This document shows, in pieces, positions 523 to 55,002 of a DNA stretch of 64,000 bases. The notes below the pieces were generated by a model, which saw only the letters and a program-made list of their open reading frames with translations, did not search any database and was not told the origin of the DNA. Position 1 is the first letter of the stretch; every line of letters starts with the position of its first letter. The DNA comes from an uncultured Clostridia bacterium. Its GTDB lineage: Bacteria > Bacillota > Clostridia > TANB77 > CAG-508. The position numbers and the translations under genes are program-made. Where the stretch lies: contig CALXQV010000015.1 in NCBI GenBank assembly GCA_944390535.1, positions 9,070 through 73,069 on the forward strand, in the 5' to 3' direction.

Positions 523-1800
523 ATGAGTGATAAAAAAGAAAAATTGTATTGGAGAAGATTGGATAATTCAGCTAAAATCTTTCCTATCTCTGCTGGAAAA
601 AAATATAGCACAGTATTTAGATTATCTGTTGTCTTAAAAGAAATGATACAACCCGATATATTAAAACAGGCAGTAGAAAAAGCTTTAGAGCAATATGCGT
701 TTTTTAGAGTTCGATTAAAGAGTGGATTTTTTTGGAATTATTTAGAATATAATCCTAAAAGAGTGGTTGTAGAAAAAGAAAGAGAGTATCCTTGTCAATA
801 TATAGAACCAAAGGAAAACAACCAGTATCTATTTAAAGTTACCTATTTTGATAAAAAAATCAATATTGATATATTTCATTCTTTAACAGATGGAAATAGT
901 GGTGTTATGTTTTTTAGAGAAATTGTTTATAACTATATAGAACTTACACATCAAGAAACATTTCAAGAAGAATTAAGGATTAAAAGAAAATTTGATGTAT
1001 CAACAGAAGATAGCTATATAAAACATTATGATAAAAAATCCAAAGGAAATAATTCATCAAAAAAAGCATATAAATTAGTAGGAAGAAAGATAAAATTAGG
1101 AGCTGTTTCAGCAATTCATGAAATCATTAACTTACAACAATTAAAAGAAGAAGCAAAGAAGAATGAAGCAACCATTACACAGTATTTAACAGCAGTTTTA
1201 ATATATGCAATTTATCAAGCAAACTATGTAAAGCATAAAGGGAAAAAACCAATAAAAGTTTGTATACCAGTAAACTTAAAAAAATATTTTCCATCTAACA
1301 CCATCTCAAACTTTTTTTCTTACATAACAGTTGAAGCCGAAATGCAAAAAGAAAACTTACATTCATTTGATAAAATATTGGCATTTGTAAAAAAAGATTT
1401 TGAGAAAAAATTAATGCCAGAAGAAATACAAAAAACAATGTCTGGGAATGTAAAATTAGGAACAAATCCATTTATAAAAGTAATTCCATTAGCAGTTAAA
1501 AAGCCAATTGTAAGATTAAGTTATTTGGAAATTAGAAAATATACAACAACAACATTTTCCAATATAGGAAGAATTGGTATCATTGGTAAATATCAAGAAT
1601 ATATTGAGGATTTTTTCATGTTAATTGCACCTGAACCAGTAGAAAAAATTAAATGTTCAGCATGTTCTTTTGACAAACATATTGTATTTACATTTACATC
1701 TATTTTAGATGATTGCCAAATAGAGAAAGCATTTTATCAATTTTTAAAAGAAAAAAACATTGATGTAATGATAGAAAGTAATGAAATTTTAGAAATCTAA
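523..1800 (+). CDS. alcohol acetyltransferase-family / condensation-domain-like acyltransferase
   Basis: RBS AAGGAG before ATG; N-terminal WRRLDNSAKIFP signature; HSLTDG (HxxxDG) catalytic-type motif. Confidence 0.55.
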   Translation: MSDKKEKLYWRRLDNSAKIFPISAGKKYSTVFRLSVVLKEMIQPDILKQAVEKALEQYAFFRVRLKSGFFWNYLEYNPKRVVVEKEREYPCQYIEPKENNQYLFKVTYFDKKINIDIFHSLTDGNSGVMFFREIVYNYIELTHQETFQEELRIKRKFDVSTEDSYIKHYDKKSKGNNSSKKAYKLVGRKIKLGAVSAIHEIINLQQLKEEAKKNEATITQYLTAVLIYAIYQANYVKHKGKKPIKVCIPVNLKKYFPSNTISNFFSYITVEAEMQKENLHSFDKILAFVKKDFEKKLMPEEIQKTMSGNVKLGTNPFIKVIPLAVKKPIVRLSYLEIRKYTTTTFSNIGRIGIIGKYQEYIEDFFMLIAPEPVEKIKCSACSFDKHIVFTFTSILDDCQIEKAFYQFLKEKNIDVMIESNEILEI

Positions 1801-1814
1801 GAAAGGAATGGAAT

Positions 1815-2378
1815 ATGTTATATCCCAAAAAATTAAGTAGTAAAAAAAGTAATTTGTTAATCAAAATATTATTAGGTATTTCGTTCGTAATTGCTATTGT
1901 ATTAACAATGATTAATCAGTTAACAACTCCAGAAATTCATTGGGCAGCACTTGTAAATAGTGGAATGATATATGCATGGATAACTGTTATTTATTCTATT
2001 AATAAGAGAACCAATATCGCAGGGCATGTTATGATACAAGCAATTGCCATCTCACTTTTAACTATATATATAGATTATAATTTGGGATTTAGTGGGTGGT
2101 CTTTAGAAATTTCGATTCCCATTATTATTATGATAGCCAATGTAACGATGCTAATATTAACGATTGTTAGTTATAGAAAATATGTACGATATGCTATCTA
2201 TCAGTTGGTTATTTGTATTTGCAGTCTTATTCCGATATATTTCATGTTTGAAAATTTGATAAAGAACTATATTCTAAGCTATATAGCAATTGGCATTTCT
2301 GTTATGAATTTTATTTTAACAATTATTCTTTCAGCAAGAGATGTGAAAGAGGCAGTTATTAGAAAGTTTCATATGTAG
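1815..2378 (+). CDS. polytopic membrane protein of unknown function
   Basis: RBS GAAAGGA; about 5-6 hydrophobic helices; tightly follows the acyltransferase gene. Confidence 0.6.
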   Translation: MLYPKKLSSKKSNLLIKILLGISFVIAIVLTMINQLTTPEIHWAALVNSGMIYAWITVIYSINKRTNIAGHVMIQAIAISLLTIYIDYNLGFSGWSLEISIPIIIMIANVTMLILTIVSYRKYVRYAIYQLVICICSLIPIYFMFENLIKNYILSYIAIGISVMNFILTIILSARDVKEAVIRKFHM

Positions 2379-2433
2379 TAATTAAAGCATCTGATAACCA
2401 AAATAAAGGAAATAAAAAAGATAGCATAGACTA

Positions 2434-2472
2434 AAAATCTTCTTAGATTTCAATACTCTAAGAAGATTTTTT
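2434..2472 (+). terminator. rho-independent terminator, bidirectional in shape
   Basis: 14-bp stem AAAATCTTCTTAGA / TCTAAGAAGATTTT, 9-nt loop, T-run after and A-run before. Confidence 0.7.
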
Positions 2473-2648
2473 ATATTTCGATTTTAACAATAGATTATAA
2501 GAAAGTCAATAAAAATTCATAAAATATTGCAGAAAAAATATACGTAAAAAAATAAAAAAATGATTGAAAAAAATCCCAGTCAAAATGTAAAAAAGCATTG
2601 AAATATCAACATATGTAAACAATACGAATCTTCTTAGAGTATTGAAAT
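2447..2648. promoter_or_regulatory. candidate invertible DNA segment (22-bp perfect inverted repeats flanking 158 bp)
   Basis: ATTTCAATACTCTAAGAAGATT at 2447-2468 and its exact reverse complement at 2627-2648; interior is not palindromic. Confidence 0.4.
2481..2509 (-). promoter_or_regulatory. sigma-A-type promoter inside the candidate switch, pointing away from the downstream gene
   Basis: TTGACT (2509-2504), 17-nt spacer, TAAAAT (2486-2481) on the minus strand. Confidence 0.4.
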
Positions 2649-2756
2649 TCAAGTAAAAACGACCAATAAATAAGTACAATATACCGAATTAATTCATGAT
2701 AACAGATATAATAAAAAAAGAACAAATGAAAAGAATAATAGAAAAGGAAGAAAAAA

Positions 2757-4439
2757 ATGAGAAAAGGAAAAGTAATGTTAAAAGAATATAAAGGGATTAC
2801 ATTAATAGCGCTTGTTATTACAATTATAGTTCTGTTGATACTTGTAGGAATTAGTATTTCAACAATATTTGGAGACAATGGAATAATAAATAAAGCTTTA
2901 CAAGCGAGCTTTTTAACAGAATATACTGAAGTACAAGAAAGAGTAGATTTATTTAACGTGGATGCCCAAATGATTAATACAACACAAGAAAATGTAAATT
3001 GGGAAGTTTTTCCGTTAGGAGATATTATTACTAATGAGGAAAAAAATAGCTGGCAAGAAGAGAAAAAAGACTTGATTAATCAAATAGAAGATAATATAGA
3101 AAGGCCGATAGAAGAAACTATTTTATATTATATTGACTTTAACAAATTAGATATAGAATATAAGCATAAATATTTGATTGATACTAGTACAGGATTATTG
3201 TTCTGTTATGATGGACATAAATACTCAGGAGAATTACATCATATTCCAGATAATATAGAAAAAAATAGTCAGATTTTAATTAGACCCGAATTTGAACCAG
3301 TCAATGAGTTTCCAATTTTGAAAGCGAATGGAGTAGAAAGAGCTGGGGTAATAAGAATAAACTATTCAAATGAAGAGAATTATGAAAATTATTATAGCAT
3401 AGATGAAGGAAAGAATTGGGTAAAATATGAAGGAGAATTTTTGGTAGAAACGAACAAAACTGTCTATGCAAAATCAGTAAATACAATTACTGGTGTGGAA
3501 GCTATGAATTCTATAAAAGTTGTTATTAATCCAAGAGGAATTGCACTAGCAGCATATGATGGGTCGCTATCAACATATGACAATGCTGGTGAAATTGATG
3601 CAGGATATAAATATATGTTAGTGGATAAATCTGCTGTTGGATTAACAGTAGAAGCCCATTTAGGATGGCATTATGCACAAATGCTACAATTAGACGAAAA
3701 TGAAGAAATATTATATGAATCAGATATACCAGGAGTAGATAATGGTAAAAAAACAGTTCAATTTGAAATATTAGAAGAAACAAAATATTTGGTATTACAT
3801 TGTAGTAATAAGGCAGGAGATGGGGCTTTGTTATATGAAATACAAATAAAAAATACACCAGATATTGTTGTTGTACAAAAGGCATATCCTAAATTAACAA
3901 GTAATGGAATTGAAAAACCATCCATGGAAGTTATGTTAGATAATACACATGTAAAACAAGCAGATAAACTATTATATAGCAAAGATAATACTAGTTGGCA
4001 AGAATATAATGGTGAAGAAATCAGGTTAGAAGTAGGAGAAACAATATATGCTAAAAATAAGTTGAATAATGGAGAAGAGTCTGGTGTGGTTAGCCAACAA
4101 TGCACCATTGACAGCAGAGCAATTACAGAAAAAGCATATGATGGGTCGCTATCAACATATGACAATGCTGGTAAAATAAATGCAGGTTATAAATATATGT
4201 CAGTTGATTCATCTGCTATTGGATTAACAGTAGAAGCCCATTTAGGATGGTATTATGCACAAATATTACAATTAAATAAAAATGAAGAGATATTATATGC
4301 ATCAGATATACCAGGAGTGTCAAGTGGCAAAAAAACGGTCCAATTTGAAATATTAGAAGATACAAAGTATCTCGTGTTATATTGTAGCAATAGTGGAGGA
4401 GATGGTGCTTTATTGTATGAAATTAACTTAATTAGTTAA
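2757..4439 (+). CDS. pilin-like (class III signal-like N-terminus) large surface protein with duplicated C-terminal modules
   Basis: N-terminus KG|ITLIALVITIIVLLILVGISI is nearly identical to the PilA N-terminus at 53613; internal 194-codon tandem duplication. Confidence 0.7.
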   Translation: MRKGKVMLKEYKGITLIALVITIIVLLILVGISISTIFGDNGIINKALQASFLTEYTEVQERVDLFNVDAQMINTTQENVNWEVFPLGDIITNEEKNSWQEEKKDLINQIEDNIERPIEETILYYIDFNKLDIEYKHKYLIDTSTGLLFCYDGHKYSGELHHIPDNIEKNSQILIRPEFEPVNEFPILKANGVERAGVIRINYSNEENYENYYSIDEGKNWVKYEGEFLVETNKTVYAKSVNTITGVEAMNSIKVVINPRGIALAAYDGSLSTYDNAGEIDAGYKYMLVDKSAVGLTVEAHLGWHYAQMLQLDENEEILYESDIPGVDNGKKTVQFEILEETKYLVLHCSNKAGDGALLYEIQIKNTPDIVVVQKAYPKLTSNGIEKPSMEVMLDNTHVKQADKLLYSKDNTSWQEYNGEEIRLEVGETIYAKNKLNNGEESGVVSQQCTIDSRAITEKAYDGSLSTYDNAGKINAGYKYMSVDSSAIGLTVEAHLGWYYAQILQLNKNEEILYASDIPGVSSGKKTVQFEILEDTKYLVLYCSNSGGDGALLYEINLIS

Positions 4440-4538: not shown

Positions 4539-4804
4539 ATTCATAAAGTTTTATTTGTTAAATATCATTATAATCTAAATTATTTTATCTATTTTTAGAG
4601 TTGATTTTGATCTATCAAATGTCGTTGTTTTAAATATCCATAAATTTATAAAAATGAATATATATGTAGCTAAAAGTTTCATATATTAATAGACATGTTT
4701 ATGTTTAATAATAGAAACATAATTTTGAATTAGAAGAAAAAGTATCAAAAAATCAGATTTGTTTGTTGAATAAAATACAGAAGTCTGATAGAATGAAAGG
4801 AGAA

Positions 4805-5720
4805 ATGTATTTGAATAATTTAAATAAGTTAAAAGAAGTAGACATGCTACCATTATCCAATGACTATGTATTTAAAAGAATCTTTGGAAAAGGTGGCAAT
4901 GAAAAAATACTAAAGAGCCTTTTAGAGGCAATACTAAAAATAGAAATACAAAAGATAGAAATAAAAAATCCAGAAATACCAAAAGAAGCGATAGATGAGA
5001 AATTAAGTATATTAGATATCAAGGCAGAAATTAATGAAGATACAATCATAGATATCGAATTACAGGTAGGAAACACAACAGCAATAGAGAGAAGATTAAT
5101 TGTGTATAATGCAAAGCTAATTGCAGGAGATATCAAAGTATCAGGAGAATACAAAAATGCAAAAGATACAATTATCATATGTATTGTAAATGATAATATA
5201 CTAAAACGAAATGCATACTTTAGTTTAGCCATGTTAAAATATGAAAAAACAGAAGAAATTAGATATGTAAATATGGGGTGTGAAAAAGAGGAAGAATATT
5301 TAAGTAATATGTTAAAATATTACATCATAGAATTACCAAAGTTCAAGAAAAAGAAACCGAAGGTAGCAGATCTATTAGAGAAATGGTTATATGTGATTGG
5401 GGGGAGATAGAAAAATGATGGAGGAATATCAAAAAGAAAATGAAGAAATCAAAGAAGCAGTAGAGCAATTGACAGAGATGAGTTCCGATGAGTATGAAAG
5501 AGAGCTATATGAAATCAGAGAAAGAAGTAGACTAACATACAATACAGAAATGAATGAAGCAAGAAGAAAAGGAATAGAAGAAGGGGAAGAAAAGGGAAAA
5601 GAAGAAGGAAAAACGGAAGAAAAGAAAGAAATTGCTAAGAAGATGAAAGAAAAAGGGTTAGATTTTAAATTGATACAAGAATTAACAGGATTAACACAAG
5701 CACAAATTCATTCATTATAG
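4805..5720 (+). pseudogene. Rpn-family recombination-promoting nuclease / PD-(D/E)XK putative transposase, frameshifted
   Basis: LPLSNDYVFKRIFG N-terminus and E/K-rich C-terminus ending LTGLTQAQI lie in two overlapping frames; the break is at a G6 run 5399-5404. Confidence 0.7.
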
Positions 5721-11830: not shown

Positions 11831-12392
11831 CATCCAAGATATGATAGATGTGAATACCATTATAGGAGAACCAATTGAAACATCTAATAATATTGTCATT
11901 ATTCCAATATCCAAAGTATCGTTTGGATTTGCAGCTGGAGGAAGTGAATTTAAGGGAGAAACGGTGGACGAATATAGGAAAAAGGAAAAGGAAGAAGAAG
12001 TACAGTATAGACTACCATTTGGAGGAGGTTCTGGAGCAGGTGTTAGCATTAATCCCATTGCTTTTTTAGTCATTCAAGGAGAAAATGTAAAACTAATGCC
12101 AGTGAATTATAGTTCTTCGATTGACAAATTATTAGACTATATTCCAGACTTATTAGATAAAACCAATCATATGGTTAATAAATGTATGCAAAAAGCAAAA
12201 GGAAAAGGAAAAGAAGAACTAAAAAATAAAGAACAGAAAAAATCAGAAAAGGTAAAAATGGACAAGACAAGAATAGAAGAAGATTTAGATGAAAATAGAC
12301 ATATAAAAGAACGAATAGAAAAAACAAAAAAACCAACAGAAGAAGAAATTACTTACGAATATGAATATGATGAAACTTTAGATGATGAGTAA
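11784..12392 (+). CDS. ytfJ: sporulation protein YtfJ / GerW family
   Basis: HPIEGLM...IGEPIE...IIPISKVSFGFAAGG signature; extra K/E-rich C-terminal tail. Confidence 0.8.
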   Translation: MSEHPIEGLMTTAMSSIQDMIDVNTIIGEPIETSNNIVIIPISKVSFGFAAGGSEFKGETVDEYRKKEKEEEVQYRLPFGGGSGAGVSINPIAFLVIQGENVKLMPVNYSSSIDKLLDYIPDLLDKTNHMVNKCMQKAKGKGKEELKNKEQKKSEKVKMDKTRIEEDLDENRHIKERIEKTKKPTEEEITYEYEYDETLDDE

Positions 12393-12892
12393 AATCGGGA
12401 ATTTGGGGACGGCCTCATTTTTCCCGTTTTCGAAATTAAGTAAGAAAAAAATATAGAATATAAAAAACGAAACGATTTTGTGTATCTGAATTTGAAATTA
12501 GAAATTCTTAAAGAAAAAAATGAGGAATGTTCATGAGGAATCAAGTGATATATTCATTTCTTATAAATGTCTCGGCTCAATACAAATGATAAAAAACTCT
12601 AAAATCATTTTATGGCACTCTTTCACTTAGTCCTCGCTATGCTCGACGTGAACATTTTCCATAAAATGATTTAAGAGTTTCTAATCATTCTCCAATCACA
12701 TTCGACATATTATGCAAAATGAATATATCACTTGATTGAGCTTGAATGAAAGAGGCTCATTTTTTTCTTTTAGAATTTCTGTGAAAATTTAGCTTATACA
12801 AAGTCGTGTAATGACTTTATATTCTATATTTTTTGTATGTTGCAAATTTAGAAAAACGGGAAAAATGAGGCCGTCCCCAAATTCCCGATTTT
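12391..12892. repeat. 502-bp foldback (MITE-like) element with perfect 40-bp terminal inverted repeats
   Basis: AAAATCGGGAATTTGGGGACGGCCTCATTTTTCCCGTTTT at 12391-12430, exact reverse complement at 12853-12892; the arms remain similar in reverse complement almost to the centre (about 12637). Confidence 0.85.
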
Positions 12893-12994
12893 AAATGTCG
12901 AAAACTTCCTATAAAACGACAAAACTTCTTAAAATTCACTCTTGGAAAATACTGGAAAAGAGAATATAATACAGAAAGAAATTTAAAGGAGGCT

Positions 12995-15710: not shown

Positions 15711-15900
15711 AAAGCACACTAGTATGATATATTTTTTATGAATTACTTGGTTGCATTGCAGAATAAATAAATTCTAAAATTAACAAGCAGGTACCTCTCA
15801 AAGCAAGTTTGAGATTCTCCTACTTGTTAATTAAAGAATTTATAATATTCTTCCATTTACATTCGTAATTTCATAAAAAATATATCATACAGTGTGCTTT
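15711..15900. repeat. 190-bp imperfect foldback element
   Basis: 36-nt arms AAAGCACACTAGTATGATATATTTTTTATGAATTAC (15711-15746) and a near-exact reverse complement (15865-15900); inner arms are also complementary. Confidence 0.75.
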
Positions 15901-18598: not shown

Positions 18599-19269
18599 GC
18601 TTTTATAATAATACGATTACCATTAAAATTATTACAAGTAACCAATGTTAATTCAAAAGAATCTGTAACTGTGTGGTATACAGGGGATAAATCATCAGAT
18701 TTTACTTCATAATTTTTAATAACAGAATATATGAATTGATTATCAGAAGTATCATAAATATAAATTTTATCATGTATAGTTAAATCTTTAATTTTGCTAA
18801 AAAATTTATCATTATCATAATTATGTCCAGCAATACATAAATTATAATCACTAGAATTGCTAAAAGGGAAATTTCCAAAAAATCGACAAGGAGCAGTTTT
18901 TAATAATTCATCAGTTAATTCATTAAAAATAGGATAGGAAATATTTAATTTAGGAATTTCAATAACGCCAATAATACTGTTGGGTTGAAGTAGACTACTA
19001 TTTGAAGTATCGTTAGTATGATTAGCATATAATTTGGAAATACTATAATTATGAATTAATAAATCAGAAAAATCTTCTTTATGATTTAAAGAAATTTTGT
19101 AATAAACAAAAACAGAAATAATGATAAATATAGCAAAAATAGAAAGAAAAAATTGAATATTTAATATTTTTTTGTAAGACTGTTTTTTAGAAGGAACATG
19201 TTGTTTATTACCAAAATCTTTTGATTGGTCAATATGGTTATTTAAGTCAATATTAATAATTTGATTCAT
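18580..19269 (-). CDS. sortase (transpeptidase)
   Basis: N-terminal TM, catalytic His (CIAGHN) and TLVTC motif; ATG 19269 preferred over the upstream TTG. Confidence 0.85.
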   Translation of the reverse strand: MNQIINIDLNNHIDQSKDFGNKQHVPSKKQSYKKILNIQFFLSIFAIFIIISVFVYYKISLNHKEDFSDLLIHNYSISKLYANHTNDTSNSSLLQPNSIIGVIEIPKLNISYPIFNELTDELLKTAPCRFFGNFPFSNSSDYNLCIAGHNYDNDKFFSKIKDLTIHDKIYIYDTSDNQFIYSVIKNYEVKSDDLSPVYHTVTDSFELTLVTCNNFNGNRIIIKAKIEDG

Positions 19270-19560
19270 GTCAATTTCAATCCTTTCTGTATTACAAAAT
19301 TTCAATTCTATTAACTATTAGTATTTCCTCATATAGTAAAAATATAATAATGATAAAACATAAAAAAATGGTAATTATGAAAGAAGGTAAAGGAGTAATA
19401 TACTTCTTATTTTTTTATAAAAAAATTTAAATAATAAAAAAATCACTTTTACAGATAGATGACACGGTTATTATCATAAATTTATGTATAAGTAACTGTT
19501 AGATTGATAAAAAGGATGTAAAAGTGATATAGTTTACTATGGGATAGGAAAGGAGGAAAT

Positions 19561-20494
19561 ATGTGGATATTAGATAAAATAATAAGTAGAAATCATACCA
19601 TCAAGTTTGAAGAAATTTCAATGGAATGGTTAGAATTAAAAAGAAATACAATCAAACAATCTACATATTATAAATATGCGTATTGCATAGAAAAATATTT
19701 AAAAGAAAGACTAGGAAAATTAAGAAAAAAAGATTTGGAAACATATGATTATAATCAAATGACAAATGAACTAACAAAAGAATTATTCCCAAAATCAGTA
19801 AAAGAAATATTAAATGTTTTAAAATCTATATTAAAATATGCTAATCAAAGATATGAAATGAATATACATTTGGATTTGATTATTTCGCCAAAAGTAAGAG
19901 TAAAGGAAATTAGTGTATTGTCGAAAAAGGAAGTTAATAAACTAGAAAAATATTGTCTAGCAGAAAATAGTTTAAAAAGTTTAGGTGTATGGATATGTTT
20001 AAACACAGGATTAAGAATAGGAGAAATATGTGCATTAAAATGGGAAGATATTGATTTTGAAAAAAAATTAATTCATATCAAAAAAACATTGCAGAGAGTA
20101 TATACTGTTGAGAAGAAAACAGAAATTATTATTGACAGTAGTAAAACAGAATCTTCTATTAGGTCTATTCCTATGTCTGATAAAATTTATCATACACTAA
20201 AAGAATTACGAAAAAAGCAGGATGTGGAATCTTTTTTTTTTGACGGGGTCTAAAATACAATATATAGAGCCAAGAAGTTATCAAAATATATTTAAAAGAA
20301 TTTTGAAAGAAAGTAAAGTAAAAGAATATAATTTTCATGTTTTAAGACATACTTTTGCAACAAATTGTATAAAAGTAGGAATGGATATAAAATCACTAAG
20401 TGAAATTTTAGGACATGCTAGTGTAGATGTCACATTAAATCGTTATGTACATTCTTCATATGAAATGAAGAAAAAATTTTTAGAAAAGTTGTAA
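19561..20494 (+). pseudogene. stand-alone tyrosine site-specific recombinase, frame broken in a T10 run (20232-20241)
   Basis: N-terminal SAM-like domain, NTGLRIGEICALKWEDID, then in the next frame HVLRHTFAT...GHASVDVTLNRYVH; T9 would restore one ORF. Confidence 0.8.
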
Positions 20495-26794: not shown

Positions 26795-27955
26795 ATGTAT
26801 GATATGACAATTTCAAAAGATATTATCTATATTGGAGCAAGTGACAAAAACATAAAAATATTTGAAAACCAATATGTATTAGAAAATGGGATGAGTTATA
26901 ATTCTTATTTAATAAAAGATGAAAAAAATGTTGTATTAGATACCATAGATGAAAAATTAACAGATAAATGGATAGAAAATTTGGAAAAAGCATTGAAAGG
27001 TGAAAAGCCAGATTATCTAATTGTTTCTCATATGGAACCAGACCATGCATATAATATAGGAAAATTGGCTAAAAAATATCCAGAAATGAAGATTGTTGGA
27101 AATCAGCTTACTTTTAATATGCTTGCCAATTTCTTTAAAGAAATCGATTTTTCTAATAGAAAATTTGTTGTTATGGAGGGTGATGTCTTAGATATTGGAA
27201 AGCATAAATTGCAATTCTTTATGGCACCTATGGTACATTGGCCAGAAGTTATGGTGACATATGAGCAAACAGAAAAAATCCTATTTTCAGCAGATGGCTT
27301 TGGAAAGTTTGGGGCAATCGATGCAGAAGAAGAATGGGATTCAGAAGCAAGAAGATATTATTTTGGAATTGTTGGAAAATATGGTATGCAAGTACAAGCA
27401 TTATTAAAAAAAGCTACCAACTTAGAGATTCAAATGATTTGTCCTTTACATGGACCAATTTTAAAAGAAAATTTAGGGTATTATTTAAACAAGTATCATA
27501 CATGGAGTAGTTATCAACCAGAGGAAGAAGGAATCGTAATTGCTTGTAGTTCTATTTATGGAAATACATTGAAAGCTGTGCAAAAACTAGCAGAGATATT
27601 AAAAGAAAAAGGAAATAAAAAAGTTGTAATAGTAGATTTAACAAAAGAAGACTGGGCAGAATCAGTAGCAAATGCTTTCAAATATTCTCATCTAATTGTT
27701 GCATCTTCTAGTTATAATGCAGGGATATTTCCTCCTATGAAACAATTTTTAAATCATCTAAAAGAAAGAAATTATCAAAATAGAACAATAGGTATGATAG
27801 AAAATGGATCATGGGCACCATCAGCAGGAAAAGAAATGAAAAGTATTTTAGAAGAAATGAAAAATATAAATATAGTAGAACCTATGATTACCATAAAATC
27901 AACAATAAGTAATGAAAATATTTCACAAATGGAACAATTGGCAAATGAACTTTAG
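26795..27955 (+). CDS. FprA-family A-type flavoprotein (metallo-beta-lactamase-like plus flavodoxin domains)
   Basis: SHMEPDH di-iron motif and C-terminal flavodoxin-like domain. Confidence 0.8.
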   Translation: MYDMTISKDIIYIGASDKNIKIFENQYVLENGMSYNSYLIKDEKNVVLDTIDEKLTDKWIENLEKALKGEKPDYLIVSHMEPDHAYNIGKLAKKYPEMKIVGNQLTFNMLANFFKEIDFSNRKFVVMEGDVLDIGKHKLQFFMAPMVHWPEVMVTYEQTEKILFSADGFGKFGAIDAEEEWDSEARRYYFGIVGKYGMQVQALLKKATNLEIQMICPLHGPILKENLGYYLNKYHTWSSYQPEEEGIVIACSSIYGNTLKAVQKLAEILKEKGNKKVVIVDLTKEDWAESVANAFKYSHLIVASSSYNAGIFPPMKQFLNHLKERNYQNRTIGMIENGSWAPSAGKEMKSILEEMKNINIVEPMITIKSTISNENISQMEQLANEL

Positions 27956-28031
27956 GGACAGTCCTGAAAGTTCACCCAAATAGTGCTAATGAATTAAAGA
28001 AAATGAACTTTAAGGACTGTCCCTAAAGTTC
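27947..28031. repeat. pair of 27-bp hairpin units in inverted orientation (family B, locus 1)
   Basis: GAACTTTAGGGACAGTCCTGAAAGTTC (27947-27973) and GAACTTTAAGGACTGTCCCTAAAGTTC (28005-28031); the upstream gene's TAG lies inside unit 1. Confidence 0.8.
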
Positions 28032-34741: not shown

Positions 34742-36761
<2,020 letters not shown>

Positions 36762-36763
<2 letters not shown>

Positions 36764-36867
36764 ACTTAAGGGACAGTCCTTAAAGTTCATTTTATGCAAA
36801 AAATATACGCAAATAACAAAATCACAAAAATAATTTTAATGAACTTTAAGGACTGTCCCTTAAGTTC
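36762..36867. repeat. pair of 27-bp hairpin units in inverted orientation (family B, locus 2)
   Basis: GAACTTAAGGGACAGTCCTTAAAGTTC (36762-36788) and its exact reverse complement (36841-36867); the ligA TGA overlaps unit 1. Confidence 0.85.
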
Positions 36868-36880
36868 AAAAGGAGAAAAA

Positions 36881-40922: not shown

Positions 40923-41132
40923 AATCTAATAAGAATGACAAAAATCCCTGCGTAGTACGTAAGAGCATAATTTTTAGAACCAACAAATTTTAAGAGGGGC
41001 CGATCTCATAAATATGGCGTGCATGCTCACAATATAGTGAGAAGCCCATGAGTATTTAGGTAGGCACCCACCTGTTTTTAGGAGCAGGTCCTTAAAAATT
41101 AAAAAGCTGACGGCTAAGGCGGGGCTTTTTTT
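40923..41132 (+). ncRNA. ssrS: structured small RNA, 6S-RNA-like (long irregular closing helix plus central bubble)
   Basis: 5' CCCUGCGUAGUACGUAAGAGCAUAAUUUUUAGAACC pairs irregularly with 3' GGUCCUUAAAAAUUAAAAAGCUGACGGCUAAGGCGGGG; internal CUCAU/AUGAG and CUCAC/GUGAG stems; promoter before, T7 after; GC-rich island in AT-rich DNA. Confidence 0.45.
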
Positions 41133-41236
41133 ATTGAATAGGAAACACTATGAAACTTTAAGTTACGCAACTCAAAGTGAAAATAAATATTTCATATTTT
41201 CAAAAGAAAAATCGTTTTTCCTATTCAATAAAAAAA
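41126..41236. repeat. hairpin element with perfect 20-bp inverted repeats
   Basis: TTTTTTTATTGAATAGGAAA (41126-41145) and its reverse complement (41217-41236); a further imperfect foldback follows at about 41273-41357. Confidence 0.6.
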
Positions 41237-41541
41237 CGTTACACAGAAAAATTGCATAGCAATTTTTTACGCCGACTGATCTTTACGCTTCTTTGAGAAC
41301 TTAAAAATATATAGTTAAATTTAAAAAAGTAGAAAAAGTTCTCGCGAAGCGAAATTTGTCTTGGCATAATAGAATGGGAGATGAAATAGTATAGTTTTCA
41401 TATCATAAAAAAGAATAGAAAGATAATTTCTTGCTATTTTTATGTAAATAGTATAAAATAAACAAAAATAAACTATTTTTTGTAGAAAAAAACTTGCATT
41501 TTAAATGAGTATAAAAGCCAAAAAGAAAGAAGGTGTGTCAT

Positions 41542-43318: not shown

Positions 43319-44561
43319 AGAATTAGGAATTTATATACATATACCATTTTGCAAACATAAATGTGATTATTGTGATTTTGTGTCATTTTCAGATAAACAA
43401 TCATGTATAGAAAAATATATAGAGGCTGTAAAAAAGGAAATAAATAACTATTTCCAAGATGAACAATTTTTACAAACATATACAGTCACCACTATATATA
43501 TTGGTGGGGGAACACCATCATATATAAATAGTAGATATATTTTTGAGATAATGAAAGTATTGGAAAATAATTTGAAAAACAATATGGTAAAAATGGAAGA
43601 TATGGAAATAACGATAGAAGTCAATCCAGGGACAGTCAATAAAGAAAAATTAGAACAGTATAGAAAAGCGAAAATCAATCGATTAAGTATTGGGTTACAA
43701 AGTGCCAGTAATACTATATTAAAACAAATAGGAAGGATTCATACATTTGAGCAATTTTTAGAAACATACAAAATGGCAAAAGAAGTAGGATTTAAGAATA
43801 TCAATGTAGATTTAATGATAGGGCTACCAAACCAAACAATAGAAGATATAAAAATAAGTTTAAAAGAAGTGATACAATTACATCCAACTCACATGAGTGT
43901 ATATTCTTTGATTGTGGAAGAAGGAACGCTGATAGCACAAAAAATAGAAAATGGTCAGTTAAAAGAAATGGATGAAATTTTAGAACGAAATATGTATTGG
44001 TATGTTAAAAATACATTGGAATTAAATGGATATACACATTATGAAATCTCTAATTTTGCAAAAAAAGGAAAAGAATCAAAACATAATCAAAATTGTTGGA
44101 AACAAAAAGAATATATTGGGATTGGTCTAGCTGCCCATTCATATTTGAATTATGTGAGGTATAGCAATACTTTAGAAATAGACCAATATATTGCTCAAAT
44201 GAATACACTAAATGAACAAGTTGTAAAAGATATATTAGCATTAGTGGAAGAAAAAGACATGCTAGAAAAAATGGATATAAAAGAAAATCTAATGTGTCAG
44301 ATAGAAAAAGTATATGAAATAGAAGAAATACAAAATATAGAAGATAGAAAAAAAGAATACATCTTATTAGGATTGAGAACAATAGAAGGAGTATCAATAT
44401 CTAAATTTAAAGAAAAATATATCGATAATCCTATATTTTTATATAGAAAAGAATTAGAAAAATTAGTGGAAGAAAAATTAGTTATAATAGATGGGGATTA
44501 TATAAGACTTACTAATAAAGGATTAGATTTGGCCAATCTAGTTTGGGAAGAATTTATATGA
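43308..44561 (+). CDS. hemW: radical-SAM heme chaperone HemW (HemN-like)
   Basis: IHIPFCKHKCDYCDF CxxxCxxC motif; GGGTPS. Confidence 0.85.
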   Translation: MENKELGIYIHIPFCKHKCDYCDFVSFSDKQSCIEKYIEAVKKEINNYFQDEQFLQTYTVTTIYIGGGTPSYINSRYIFEIMKVLENNLKNNMVKMEDMEITIEVNPGTVNKEKLEQYRKAKINRLSIGLQSASNTILKQIGRIHTFEQFLETYKMAKEVGFKNINVDLMIGLPNQTIEDIKISLKEVIQLHPTHMSVYSLIVEEGTLIAQKIENGQLKEMDEILERNMYWYVKNTLELNGYTHYEISNFAKKGKESKHNQNCWKQKEYIGIGLAAHSYLNYVRYSNTLEIDQYIAQMNTLNEQVVKDILALVEEKDMLEKMDIKENLMCQIEKVYEIEEIQNIEDRKKEYILLGLRTIEGVSISKFKEKYIDNPIFLYRKELEKLVEEKLVIIDGDYIRLTNKGLDLANLVWEEFI

Positions 44562-44640
44562 ACTTGAGGGACAGTCCTTAAAGTTCACTAATAAAAACAT
44601 ATATTAAAGGCATGAACTTTAAGGACTGTCCCTTAAGTTC
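44560..44640. repeat. pair of 27-bp hairpin units in inverted orientation (family B, locus 3)
   Basis: GAACTTGAGGGACAGTCCTTAAAGTTC (44560-44586) and GAACTTTAAGGACTGTCCCTTAAGTTC (44614-44640); the hemW TGA overlaps unit 1. Confidence 0.85.
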
Positions 44641-44656
44641 ATATGAAAGGGGCAAA

Positions 44657-53612: not shown

Positions 53613-54062
53613 ATGAGAAACCAAAGAGGTATTACTTTAATCGCTTTAGTAATCACAATTATTGTTTTATTAATTTTAGCAGGGGTATCAATTGCTATGC
53701 TTACAGGAGAAAATGGTATATTAACAAAAGCAACAGATGCAAAAGCTAAGAGTGCAGAAGCAGAAGCTGAAGAAGCTTTGAAATTAGCACTTTCAGAAAT
53801 TTTAGCAAATAAGTTAGACCCTACTTATGAAGGTAGCGAAGATGTCATTAATGAAGCTAATATAAAAAAATTAGTGACAGATAATAACAATAATGTAACA
53901 GTTACTGAGGCAACAGAAACAGAAGCAAACGATACAGTACCAGCGTATTTTACAGTAAAATTACAACTTGGTAATAATAGTGTATATACACGTTATGTTG
54001 AAACAGAATCAGGAAAAGTTTCTACTAGTGTACCAACTGCATCAGTTGAATCAGGAAGCTAA
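53613..54062 (+). CDS. pilA: major type IV pilin (non-canonical, no Glu5)
   Basis: MRNQRG|ITLIALVITIIVLLILAGVSIAML class III signal-like N-terminus; strong RBS AAAGGAGG; hairpin after the gene. Confidence 0.7.
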   Translation: MRNQRGITLIALVITIIVLLILAGVSIAMLTGENGILTKATDAKAKSAEAEAEEALKLALSEILANKLDPTYEGSEDVINEANIKKLVTDNNNNVTVTEATETEANDTVPAYFTVKLQLGNNSVYTRYVETESGKVSTSVPTASVESGS

Positions 54063-54090
54063 TATATAAAAATTATAGTTATAAACTAAA

Positions 54091-54120
54091 AGCCATACGC
54101 ACACTTGAGTGTGTATGGCT
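54091..54120 (+). terminator. hairpin after pilA (partial terminator)
   Basis: AGCCATACGCACAC / GTGTGTATGGCT stem; weak T-tail. Confidence 0.45.
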
Positions 54121-54186
54121 TAAATATTAAAAATAGAAGTAAAACAGATAAAATGAATACGATTATGATAGATAGAAGGAGAGAAA

Positions 54187-55002
54187 ATGGATATACTACT
54201 ATATATATTAATATTCATAATGGGGACTGTATTTGGTAGTTTTTTTACATTAGCAATATATAGAATACCAAAGAAACAAGATATTACACATACACATTCA
54301 TATTGTCCTAATTGTAATCATAAATTAGGTTTTTTAGATTTAGTTCCTATATTTAGTTATATCTTTTTGTTAGGAAAATGTAGATATTGTAAAACAAATA
54401 TTAGACCTAGATATTTTATCTTAGAACTTTTATCTGGTTTCACATTTGTCATAATCGCATATATGTTAAATATGAATATCAATAATTTAAGACCAATGTT
54501 ATTAGCAGAAGGTGCATTTATGGCACTTTATTTGTGTTTTATTTTTATCATGGCAGGTATTGATGCAGAAAATAGGAAAATTGAAAAATCAATATCTATG
54601 TATGGTATTTTACTTTCTATTGTTTATATAATATATCTATGTGTAATAGAGAAAGATAGTATATTTAGATATGTTATATATTTAGCATTTTATGTTATCA
54701 TTTTAATACTAGACACCGTTACTTTAAAGAGATATGCAAAAAATAGTTATGTTCATGGTATGATACTAACCGTTTTAACGATGGTCATTTTTACAGGAGA
54801 GTATGTGGTAATAAATACGATTATTATGACAGCACTTGTGGTAGCAATTAATTTATTATTACATAAAGTAGCAAATATCAGAAAAAGAGTTAGAAGCGAA
54901 AAAAAAGATTATGGCAAAAATATAAATTATGGAGTTATTTTAGCCATAGCCAATATTTTAAATCTTATCTTTGTATTAGCTTGGTATAAATTTTTTATTT
55001 AA
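54187..55002 (+). CDS. pilD: prepilin peptidase (A24 family)
   Basis: N-terminal CPNCNHKL...CRYCKTNI Zn-finger, RYFILELL, polytopic membrane body with AGIDAE. Confidence 0.8.
   Translation: MDILLYILIFIMGTVFGSFFTLAIYRIPKKQDITHTHSYCPNCNHKLGFLDLVPIFSYIFLLGKCRYCKTNIRPRYFILELLSGFTFVIIAYMLNMNINNLRPMLLAEGAFMALYLCFIFIMAGIDAENRKIEKSISMYGILLSIVYIIYLCVIEKDSIFRYVIYLAFYVIILILDTVTLKRYAKNSYVHGMILTVLTMVIFTGEYVVINTIIMTALVVAINLLLHKVANIRKRVRSEKKDYGKNINYGVILAIANILNLIFVLAWYKFFI

Follow-up and report, generated by a model that had tools for sequence, protein, structure and literature searches.

A probable inverton upstream of the gene for a type IV pilin-like surface protein in an uncultured Clostridium of the gut

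The mechanism of invertons is textbook knowledge, and thousands of them are known in gut bacteria, Clostridia included. In fimS of Escherichia coli, a 314-bp element with 9-bp repeats that is flipped by the tyrosine recombinases FimB and FimE, the recombinase genes are adjacent and an internal promoter serves the fimbrial genes. Here, we describe a candidate element of this kind in a 64,000-nucleotide stretch of DNA from an uncultured Clostridia bacterium (GenBank assembly GCA_944390535.1, contig CALXQV010000015.1, positions 9,070 to 73,069), which is referred to as the window. The putative invertible segment (158 nt, 2469–2626) is located between a left inverted repeat (IR-L, 2447–2468) and a right inverted repeat (IR-R, 2627–2648). 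It contains a promoter-like site, P1, and precedes a gene for a 560-residue type IV pilin-like protein (2757–4439, plus strand).

Several clostridial switches are of similar size. The flagellar flgB switch of Clostridioides difficile is 154 bp long with 21-bp repeats, and its mechanism acts after transcription initiation (PMC5914908). The cwpV switch has an orientation-dependent intrinsic terminator in the leader and no internal promoter (PMC5914908). In the cmr switch, an internal promoter serves the downstream genes only when the segment has one of its two orientations, extra fixed promoters are present, and the recombinase is encoded elsewhere (PMC8844915). In gut Clostridia, the PhaseFinder inverton group 139 is tied to a group of tyrosine recombinases, and the published repeats are 13–26 nt long (PMC11892184).

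The closest design is that of the RecV-dependent cmr switch of C. difficile, i.e., a short repeat-flanked segment in a clostridial genome of low G+C content, with an internal promoter, fixed promoters downstream and an unlinked recombinase. However, the cmr repeats are imperfect while the repeats in the window are perfect, and the cargo of cmr is a signal-transduction operon, while here it is a pilin-like adhesin gene without a cyclic di-GMP riboswitch (Rfam), for which we infer the inversion. A first-pass annotation of this DNA had compared the locus to the cwpV, flgB and cmrRST switches alike. The analogy holds for cmr, which works through an internal promoter, but cwpV and flgB work otherwise (PMC5914908, PMC8844915). 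As in cwpV, a surface-protein gene is located downstream, and a hairpin in the window, which has a U-tract in the present orientation only, resembles the cwpV terminator. In cwpV, however, control is purely by termination, while the conserved element here is the promoter and the hairpin is lineage-specific. The likeness to fimS would be a promoter in an invertible element that drives pilus genes and is flipped by tyrosine recombinases; the window differs in its 158-bp segment, its 22-bp repeats, the absence of an adjacent recombinase and a pilus of type IV-like kind. Group 139 also consists of intergenic, repeat-flanked segments, ~200 bp long and located close to genes for surface or adhesion functions in Clostridia of the gut, but for nearly all of its members a recombinase of the linked group is encoded at a distance of up to 5 kb, and the switch in the window has none. 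With 158 bp, 22-bp repeats and a candidate recombinase 17 kb away, the locus has the dimensions of the RecV-type switches (~150–200 bp, ~20-bp repeats, unlinked recombinase). The size and the repeat length fit proven invertons of Clostridia (PMC5914908, PMC8844915, PMC11892184), which speaks for the inverton reading.

The 22-mer ATTTCAATACTCTAAGAAGATT has exactly two copies in the window, 2447–2468 on the plus strand and 2627–2648 on the minus strand, with 158 nt between them, just as the first-pass annotation had reported; all of its factual statements could be reproduced. The pairing can be extended to 27 nt at 93% complementarity, and no further copy exists in the window, even when three mismatches are allowed. 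The arrangement clearly departs from chance. It occurred in none of 100 dinucleotide shuffles with three mismatches tolerated, and the longest perfect inverted repeat (gap 30–1000 nt) in 200 first-order Markov simulations of 64 kb was 18 nt, in line with the earlier judgement that a chance origin is very unlikely. The window has a G+C content of ~27–30%. As in invertons, the repeats surround a short segment, within the range of tens to hundreds of bp. The interior, 2469–2626, is not a foldback (DNA fold z-score +0.54), in contrast to the remaining long inverted repeats in this DNA, nested palindromes such as that at 15722–15890 (z-score −6.6), and the distinction drawn before between this interior and the other repeats of the window is therefore upheld. 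An Rfam scan of 2300–2850 gave chance hairpin matches only and no cyclic di-GMP riboswitch. A small conserved open reading frame spanning the left repeat was also considered and rejected, since every frame is interrupted.

The 22-mer could also have been one copy of a dispersed repeat family. When 185,579 species-representative genomes were scanned, a single other exact match was found, in the metagenome-assembled genome of a different uncultured Clostridium (run ERR7167046; locus L004), and the 22-mer is thus no dispersed repeat.

The two repeats are organised like the core sites of tyrosine recombinases. The left site, AATCTTCTTAGA-TTTCAATAC-TCTAAGAAGATT, is a perfect 12-9-12 palindrome around an asymmetric spacer. 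In the right site, AATCTTCTTAGA-GTATTGAAA-TTCAAGTAAAAA, the inner half-site is the same and the spacer is inverted, while the outer half-site, TTCAAG, is degenerate; including it, the right element covers 2627–2653 on the minus strand, with the perfect repeat confined to 2627–2648. The 9-nt spacer is identical at 9/9 positions, and inverted, between the two sites. The same pattern is found in L004, where the outer half-sites are degenerate on both sides, and in both species the degenerate half-sites retain a TCYAAG-like core. Judged by sequence, this is the layout of lox-like core sites (lox/FRT/dif type), in which inverted half-sites enclose an asymmetric shared spacer of 6–9 bp. Strand exchange needs identical spacers in the partner sites, while a dimeric operator does not.

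P1 is located at 2481–2509 on the minus strand and consists of the −35 hexamer TTGACT (2509–2504), a 17-nt spacer and the −10 hexamer TAAAAT (2486–2481), which is part of the extended −10 TGTTAAAAT (2489–2481). With its TG extension at 2489–2488 (TTGACT-17-TGnTAAAAT) it is the top promoter-like match in 1800–3000, at 10/12, so that the near-consensus sigma-A promoter proposed earlier is confirmed as the best site of the region. A weaker plus-strand candidate at 2564–2593 was not reported by the promoter scan and is not conserved in L004. At present, P1 is directed leftward, away from the pilin-like gene, and it meets a hairpin and then the 3' end of a convergent gene, i.e., there is no gene for it to drive. 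The hexamers of P1, a putative orientation-dependent promoter, are conserved across species; a fixed promoter-like site is also present downstream.

The hairpin, 2433–2471, is formed by the palindromic left site (AATCTTCTTAGA-TTTCAATAC-TCTAAGAAGATT) together with A/T runs. It has a 15-bp stem, of which IR-L is the 3' arm, and a 9-nt loop, with a folding free energy of −15.2 kcal/mol on the plus strand (z-score −5.5) and −16.6 kcal/mol on the minus strand (z-score −4.1). The U-tract behind the stem exists in the current orientation only; in silico, flipping replaces it by CGUAUUG. The first-pass annotation had noted a hairpin at 2434–2470 in the path of P1. This is correct, but in our view the palindrome is primarily a full recombinase core site and, at the same time, a two-way intrinsic terminator, which would end the transcript of the upstream DUF6320 gene and stop leftward P1 transcripts. 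L004 has no such hairpin or terminator, and the hairpin is thus specific to the window lineage. A terminator on the left conserved in both species was accordingly rejected, as only the window has one.

On the other side, the leader of the pilin-like gene (2654–2756, plus strand) contains the ribosome-binding site AAAGGAAG and a fixed −10-like TATAAT (2707–2712), for which the −35 is poor. The promoter-like site reads CCGAAT-17-TATAAT in the window and TTGACT-17-TAAAAT at the homologous position of L004 (6150–6178). Because this fixed site is located right of IR-R in both species, the switch may modulate rather than strictly gate the expression, and the gene may not be strictly OFF, cf. cmrRST (PMC8844915).

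The comparison with L004 reveals which parts of the element are conserved. There, the left repeat is identical at 22/22 positions and the right one at 21/22, and 159 nt separate them. The context is unrelated to that of the window, with a divergent G5/SH3/glucosaminidase gene on the left and, 400 nt downstream on the right, a gene for a 462-residue pilin-like protein. This protein has a similar pilin N-terminus and a body of unrelated Glug repeats, and it shares just the ~38-residue N-terminus with the 560-residue protein. Since the two downstream proteins share only this part, the common denominator of the two loci is a switch and a pilin-type surface gene. Between the window and L004, the identity is 100% in IR-L, 95% in IR-R, 6/6 in the −35 hexamer and 10/10 in the extended −10 block, while it is 8/14 (57%) in the promoter spacer, 63–75% in the other interior and 67% in the leader, which is collinear with the L004 leader (64% over 97 nt). 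The homology runs past both repeats, through ~100 nt of leader on the right and, on the left, to a 17-mer, GGAAATAAAAAAGATAG (2408–2424, plus strand), that is identical in L004 (5847–5863). Among 55 loci, this 17-mer was found at switch-bearing loci only, and it may be an accessory protein-binding site.

From this alignment, the repeats and the promoter appear to be the elements under selection in both species, and their sole shared neighbour is a pilin-type surface gene. The identity of the P1 hexamers and extended −10 in L004, despite the lack of a gene to drive in the window, fits the OFF state of a switch. The resemblance of the repeats to lox-type core sites and the selective conservation in L004 together favour a real invertible promoter. 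The switch interpretation of the first-pass annotation was thus right in its anatomy and gains strong support from the conserved repeats and promoter hexamers, but the inversion itself was not seen.

In L004 (4329–7900), the switch is located between divergent genes. P1 faces the glucosaminidase gene (start 5738), which has a promoter of its own (11/12), and after a flip it would face the pilin-like Glug gene. From this arrangement, the L004 switch could be a two-way toggle.

Wider searches gave no other copies. A scan of the JGI metagenomes with a 20-mer of the repeat gave 0 matches, and a gapped pattern of both inner half-sites found just four unrelated palindromes, in DNA of 32–53% G+C. Three patterns gave 0 matches in IMG/VR, and blastn against plasmids and phages gave no match. 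Other lineages have homologues of both downstream proteins, P0002, P0009 and P0012 for the 560-residue one and P0122 and P0128 for the one of L004. They are encoded at other loci, with none of these repeats and with different upstream DNA. A sister species with the same synteny, and flanking genes that are 83–86% identical, has neither the switch nor the 560-residue gene, so the two form an accessory cassette.

The DNA in front of other pilin-like Glug genes looks unstable, judged from its repeats and lengths. Upstream of one of them (L028, 2420–2830), repeats of 34–49 nt in alternating orientation and a (CA)10 run are found. The contigs L029–L033, from four Logan runs of which one gave two contigs, begin 72–176 nt upstream of a pilin-like Glug gene, three of them at exactly 78 nt. 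In samples L053–L055, the upstream DNA differs in length, (TA)10 vs (TA)9 and T8 vs T7.

The presumed regulated gene starts 108 nt downstream of IR-R. The protein has a type IV prepilin-type N-terminus (KG/ITLIALVITIIVLLIL) and beta-sandwich domains. Over 40 residues, the N-terminus KGITLIALVITIIVLLIL is 65% identical to the 149-residue type IV pilin of the window (53613–54062), which is itself a match to Pfam N_methyl, and the earlier description of a pilin-like surface protein is thereby borne out. The body is beta-rich and includes two copies of a ~100-residue domain that resembles a carbohydrate-binding module. Both copies are encoded by a 291-nt duplication inside the gene (3551–3841 vs 4133–4423, 87% identical), and homologues of ~770 residues seem, from the alignment consensus, to have the unit three times. 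Pfam Mucin_bdg is present in longer homologues. The AlphaFold model is of moderate quality, with a predicted local distance difference test (pLDDT) score of 69, and its best fold matches in the PDB are glycan-binding proteins with carbohydrate-binding modules, at low TM-score. These matches are no more than suggestive of a glycan-binding function. The label pilin-like adhesin is reasonable, with binding as a suggested function. At both loci, the adjacent gene encodes a surface protein, the 560-residue pilin-like protein in the window and the pilin-like Glug protein in L004.

The window also encodes a major type IV pilin and a prepilin peptidase (54187–55002; together 53613–55002 on the plus strand, Pfam N_methyl and A24_N_bact), with PilB- and PilT-like ATPases downstream. 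The genes of this type IV pilus cluster would process and assemble the pilin-like protein. The N-terminus GITLIALVITIIVLLILAG, present at 2793 and 53628 of the window, has Ala in place of the Glu5 that is usual in type IV pilins. Gut metagenomes encode hundreds to thousands of proteins that begin with it and differ widely in their C-terminal modules (LRR, Glug, RCC1, Mucin_bdg). They look like a large family of modular surface proteins that are anchored to pili.

The only recombinase gene of the window is, as annotated before, a frameshifted one at 19561–20494 (plus strand). It is a stand-alone tyrosine recombinase gene (Pfam Phage_integrase and a SAM-like domain) and is our candidate for the invertase. 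Of the solved structures, the Tn1549 integrase 6EN0 is the nearest to its catalytic half, and the protein stays below the cut-off of every specific NCBIfam family. A serine recombinase was not found in the window by tblastn with an approximate Hin sequence as the query. The frameshift is caused by one extra T in a T10 tract (20232–20241). A sibling strain of the same species has an intact 310-residue allele (P0259; L052, 4036–4968), with T9 and no other difference over 934 nt, on a contig from the same sample as contig L045. As a single homopolymer T separates the allele of the window from the intact one, the gene is, by this comparison, not simply dead. The earlier view of an orphan gene therefore holds as far as it is stand-alone and frameshifted, but it is not a simple relic. 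In another species, the orthologue is chromosomal and has kept its downstream ABC-transporter neighbours. That a conserved recombinase of this stand-alone kind exists, with an intact allele within the species, counts in favour of a switch.

Frameshifts recur in this family. Relatives of at least 75% identity form 11 truncated clusters (182 member sequences) and 11 intact ones (127), i.e., 182/309 are frameshifted. All eight of the truncated relatives that were retrieved end just after the T tract, and 230-residue truncated alleles are found in other assemblies. The tract looks hypermutable, or rescued by slippage, in the manner of a contingency site. When A/T runs of 10 nt or more and G/C runs of 6 nt or more are counted, the window contains three homopolymer runs, and two of these coincide with frameshifts. 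The second is an additional G in a G6 run that splits a PDDEXK_2 gene, and for this reason homopolymer errors of the assembly are possible. Either natural slippage or assembly error could account for these frameshifts.

Left of the window, a further recombinase gene was considered as the invertase and rejected. It encodes XerD (above the TIGR02225 cut-off), is located beside spoIIM and is a housekeeping gene; its distance is ~2.8 kb from the window start and ~5 kb from the switch. At 260 nt from the candidate recombinase gene, a 20-nt inverted repeat (19091–19110 and 19284–19303, 90%) surrounds the start and the first ~55 codons of a sortase gene. Its perfect core of 14 nt is at chance level in the simulations.

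We suggest the following model. Two lox-like core sites in inverted orientation, with 12-nt half-sites TCTAAGAAGATT and the asymmetric 9-nt spacer TTTCAATAC, would flank the 158-bp segment. In the present, OFF orientation, transcripts from P1 would start near 2474 (minus strand) and run into the palindromic left site, where they would form an RNA hairpin of −16.6 kcal/mol followed by U's. This site would terminate in both directions, so that P1 would be insulated and read-through from the DUF6320 gene stopped. A tyrosine recombinase would then swap strands within the spacer, and the segment 2469–2626 would flip. The expected junctions after the flip would be CTCTAAGAAGATT joined to CGTATTGTTTACATATG on the left and CGAAATATAAAAA joined to AATCTTCTTAGAG on the right. 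After an in-silico flip, the hexamers TTGACT and TAAAAT are located at plus-strand positions 2586 and 2609, respectively, in agreement with the first-pass estimate of about 2586–2614, and the 5' untranslated region up to the ATG at 2757 measures ~135 nt. In this ON orientation, transcripts from P1 (~2586–2614, plus strand) would start near 2621 and cross the right repeat and the ~135-nt leader to reach the gene at 2757. As the left hairpin would also lose its U-tract, read-through from upstream could add to the expression, i.e., promoter delivery and terminator loss would act in the same direction. The candidate invertase is the product of the gene at 19561–20494, a gene that would toggle between an in-frame T9 form and an out-of-frame T10 form.

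It can further be speculated that phase variation occurs in two tiers. The recombinase would then be switched by T9/T10 slippage, and it would flip P1 and perhaps other switches in the genome that control modular pilin-anchored adhesins, which form a large family in uncultured gut Clostridia. We regard this extension as doubtful.

In total, we give a probability of roughly 65% to the reading that the segment inverts in vivo and is an inverton by which a surface protein of type IV pilin-like kind, probably a glycan-binding one, becomes phase-variable. We infer the inversion, the position of the crossover, the activity of the promoter and the identity of the recombinase. Compared with established invertons, the locus agrees in its repeats, its position and its cargo, and its promoter is suggestive, while heterogeneity of orientation was not observed, on the weak evidence that assemblies provide.

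The orientation was searched by exact-protein look-ups of the 560-residue protein, the upstream AATase-like protein and the L004 protein, which gave 4 + 2 independent assemblies, the four of the window species being ERZ28614742, ERZ24773253, ERZ28614620 and ERZ24773265. Several observations weigh against inversion. A flipped copy was found in none of the seven independent assemblies (five of this species, including the window, and two of the L004 species), P1 always pointing away from the pilin-like gene, and L045, from the sample with the intact recombinase allele, has the common orientation as well. No recombinase gene is located within 5 kb of either switch, the candidate in the window being 17 kb away and frameshifted. 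Promoter-like hexamers are common at 27% G+C, with 12 in 1800–3000 compared to 9.7 expected from shuffles, and both species have a fixed promoter-like site downstream of IR-R, a weak one in the window and one that scores 10/12 in L004. Finally, the module is seen in two species only, and the comparison rests on a single pairwise alignment. The uniform orientation is weak negative evidence, because assemblies report the majority orientation only and the coverage, as read from the contig names, is low (~4–6x for two contigs of the window species, 22x for the L004 contig). Such a picture is expected from a switch with a strong OFF bias, but also from a fixed element. The earlier claim of a phase-variable gene caught in its OFF orientation is therefore correct in that P1 points away from the gene, but it is not accompanied by a flipped copy in the seven assemblies.

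The constant orientation bears on two of the four alternatives. The locus could be a fossil or locked switch, derived from a real inverton that has stopped flipping in this lineage, either because the invertase is frameshifted or because a partner recombinase is missing, so that the gene depends on a weak fixed promoter. The single orientation in all seven assemblies, the T10 allele of the window together with the 230-residue truncated alleles elsewhere, and the fixed −10 TATAAT downstream of IR-R would all fit such a fate. On the other hand, the repeats are perfect or near-perfect and the P1 hexamers fully conserved while neighbouring DNA is ~60–65% identical, which implies ongoing selection, and an intact T9 allele exists in the same species; we consider a locked switch unlikely. 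The constant orientation would also be seen if this were a fixed regulatory region that never inverts, where the 22-mers are operators flanking a leftward promoter (e.g., by looping) and the −35 and −10 blocks are perhaps protein-binding sites. The conserved 17-mer outside the repeats and the L004 promoter that faces the glucosaminidase gene (start 5738) are compatible with this. However, that gene has its own 11/12 promoter, the leftward promoter of the window faces just a terminator hairpin and a convergent gene, and the type of gene common to both species is on the right, not on the left. Moreover, the asymmetric 9-nt spacer is identical but inverted, which is needed by a recombinase but not by a dimeric operator. 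A fixed region is in our opinion quite unlikely.

The mobility of the unit and chance are easier to judge. A unit of ~200 bp with inverted repeats of 22–27 nt at unrelated loci in two species, and with a gene of the PD-(D/E)XK "transposase" family 2 kb downstream, might be a miniature inverted-repeat transposable element (MITE) or what is left of an insertion-sequence end, in which case the inverted repeats would be terminal and the promoter directed outward. Yet there is a single copy per genome sampled, no matches were found in the metagenome, viral, plasmid and phage collections, and no target-site duplication is visible by eye in the flanks of either locus. The homology between the window and L004 passes both repeats, so these are not the ends of a unit. 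In short, none of the hallmarks of a MITE is seen here, neither multiple scattered copies nor duplicated target sites nor a homology that stops at the repeats, and this origin is very unlikely. It could finally be a coincidence that the terminator hairpin of the upstream gene, to which the left arm indeed belongs, has a partial copy downstream. No simulation or shuffle reached a 22-nt inverted repeat, however, and the same pair is kept in a second species without a hairpin, a match that effectively refutes this explanation and leaves it a negligible chance.

The surroundings of the switch contain additional features. Upstream, all on the plus strand, are an alpha/beta-hydrolase gene, an AATase-like gene and the DUF6320 gene, which ends at 2378. 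About 2 kb downstream, the PD-(D/E)XK gene (Rpn-like, PDDEXK_2) is divided into two open reading frames, 4763–5410 and 5397–5720, by the extra G in the G6 run (5399–5404), as seen against the sibling contig L001 (99.93% identity over 7.4 kb). Immediately left of the window (L044, 7563–8929), between xerD and the hydrolase gene, are a RelA/SpoT-like small alarmone synthetase gene and a SocA_Panacea-domain gene. By their domains, this pair is likely a toxSAS toxin-antitoxin system, and it is missing at that position in the sister species (L034).

The window also contains other repeats. At 15713–15899, between an unannotated open reading frame and an M23 peptidase gene, there is an inverted repeat of ~30 nt with nested palindromes (z-score −6.6) and no Rfam match. 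A nested palindrome of ~500 nt (12390–12893), with arms of up to 62 nt at 84% and a perfect core of 41 nt, is intergenic between a ytfJ-like gene and a STAS-domain gene. A dispersed foldback family with the core TGAACTTTAAGGACTGTCCCTTAAGTTCA is present at 27947–28031, 36755–36868 and 44553–44647; it forms hairpins with 28–35-nt arms and resembles repetitive extragenic palindromes. A 6S RNA gene (40942–41129, 96 bits) is followed by a 26-nt inverted repeat (41126–41236), and sequences similar to 41126–41237 recur in tandem in L004 (1015–1227) and in L034 (557–607).

If the segment flips, a DNA switch would let an uncultured gut Clostridium vary an adhesin that is displayed on a pilus and probably binds glycans or mucin. 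The known invertons of the gut would then gain a cargo of type IV pilin-like kind and a compact pair of promoter and recombination sites that is conserved across species. The recurrent homopolymer frameshift in the candidate invertase is the more unusual lead, as the switching machinery could itself be phase-variable. If the two-tier scheme were true, the switch population would be alternately unlocked and frozen.

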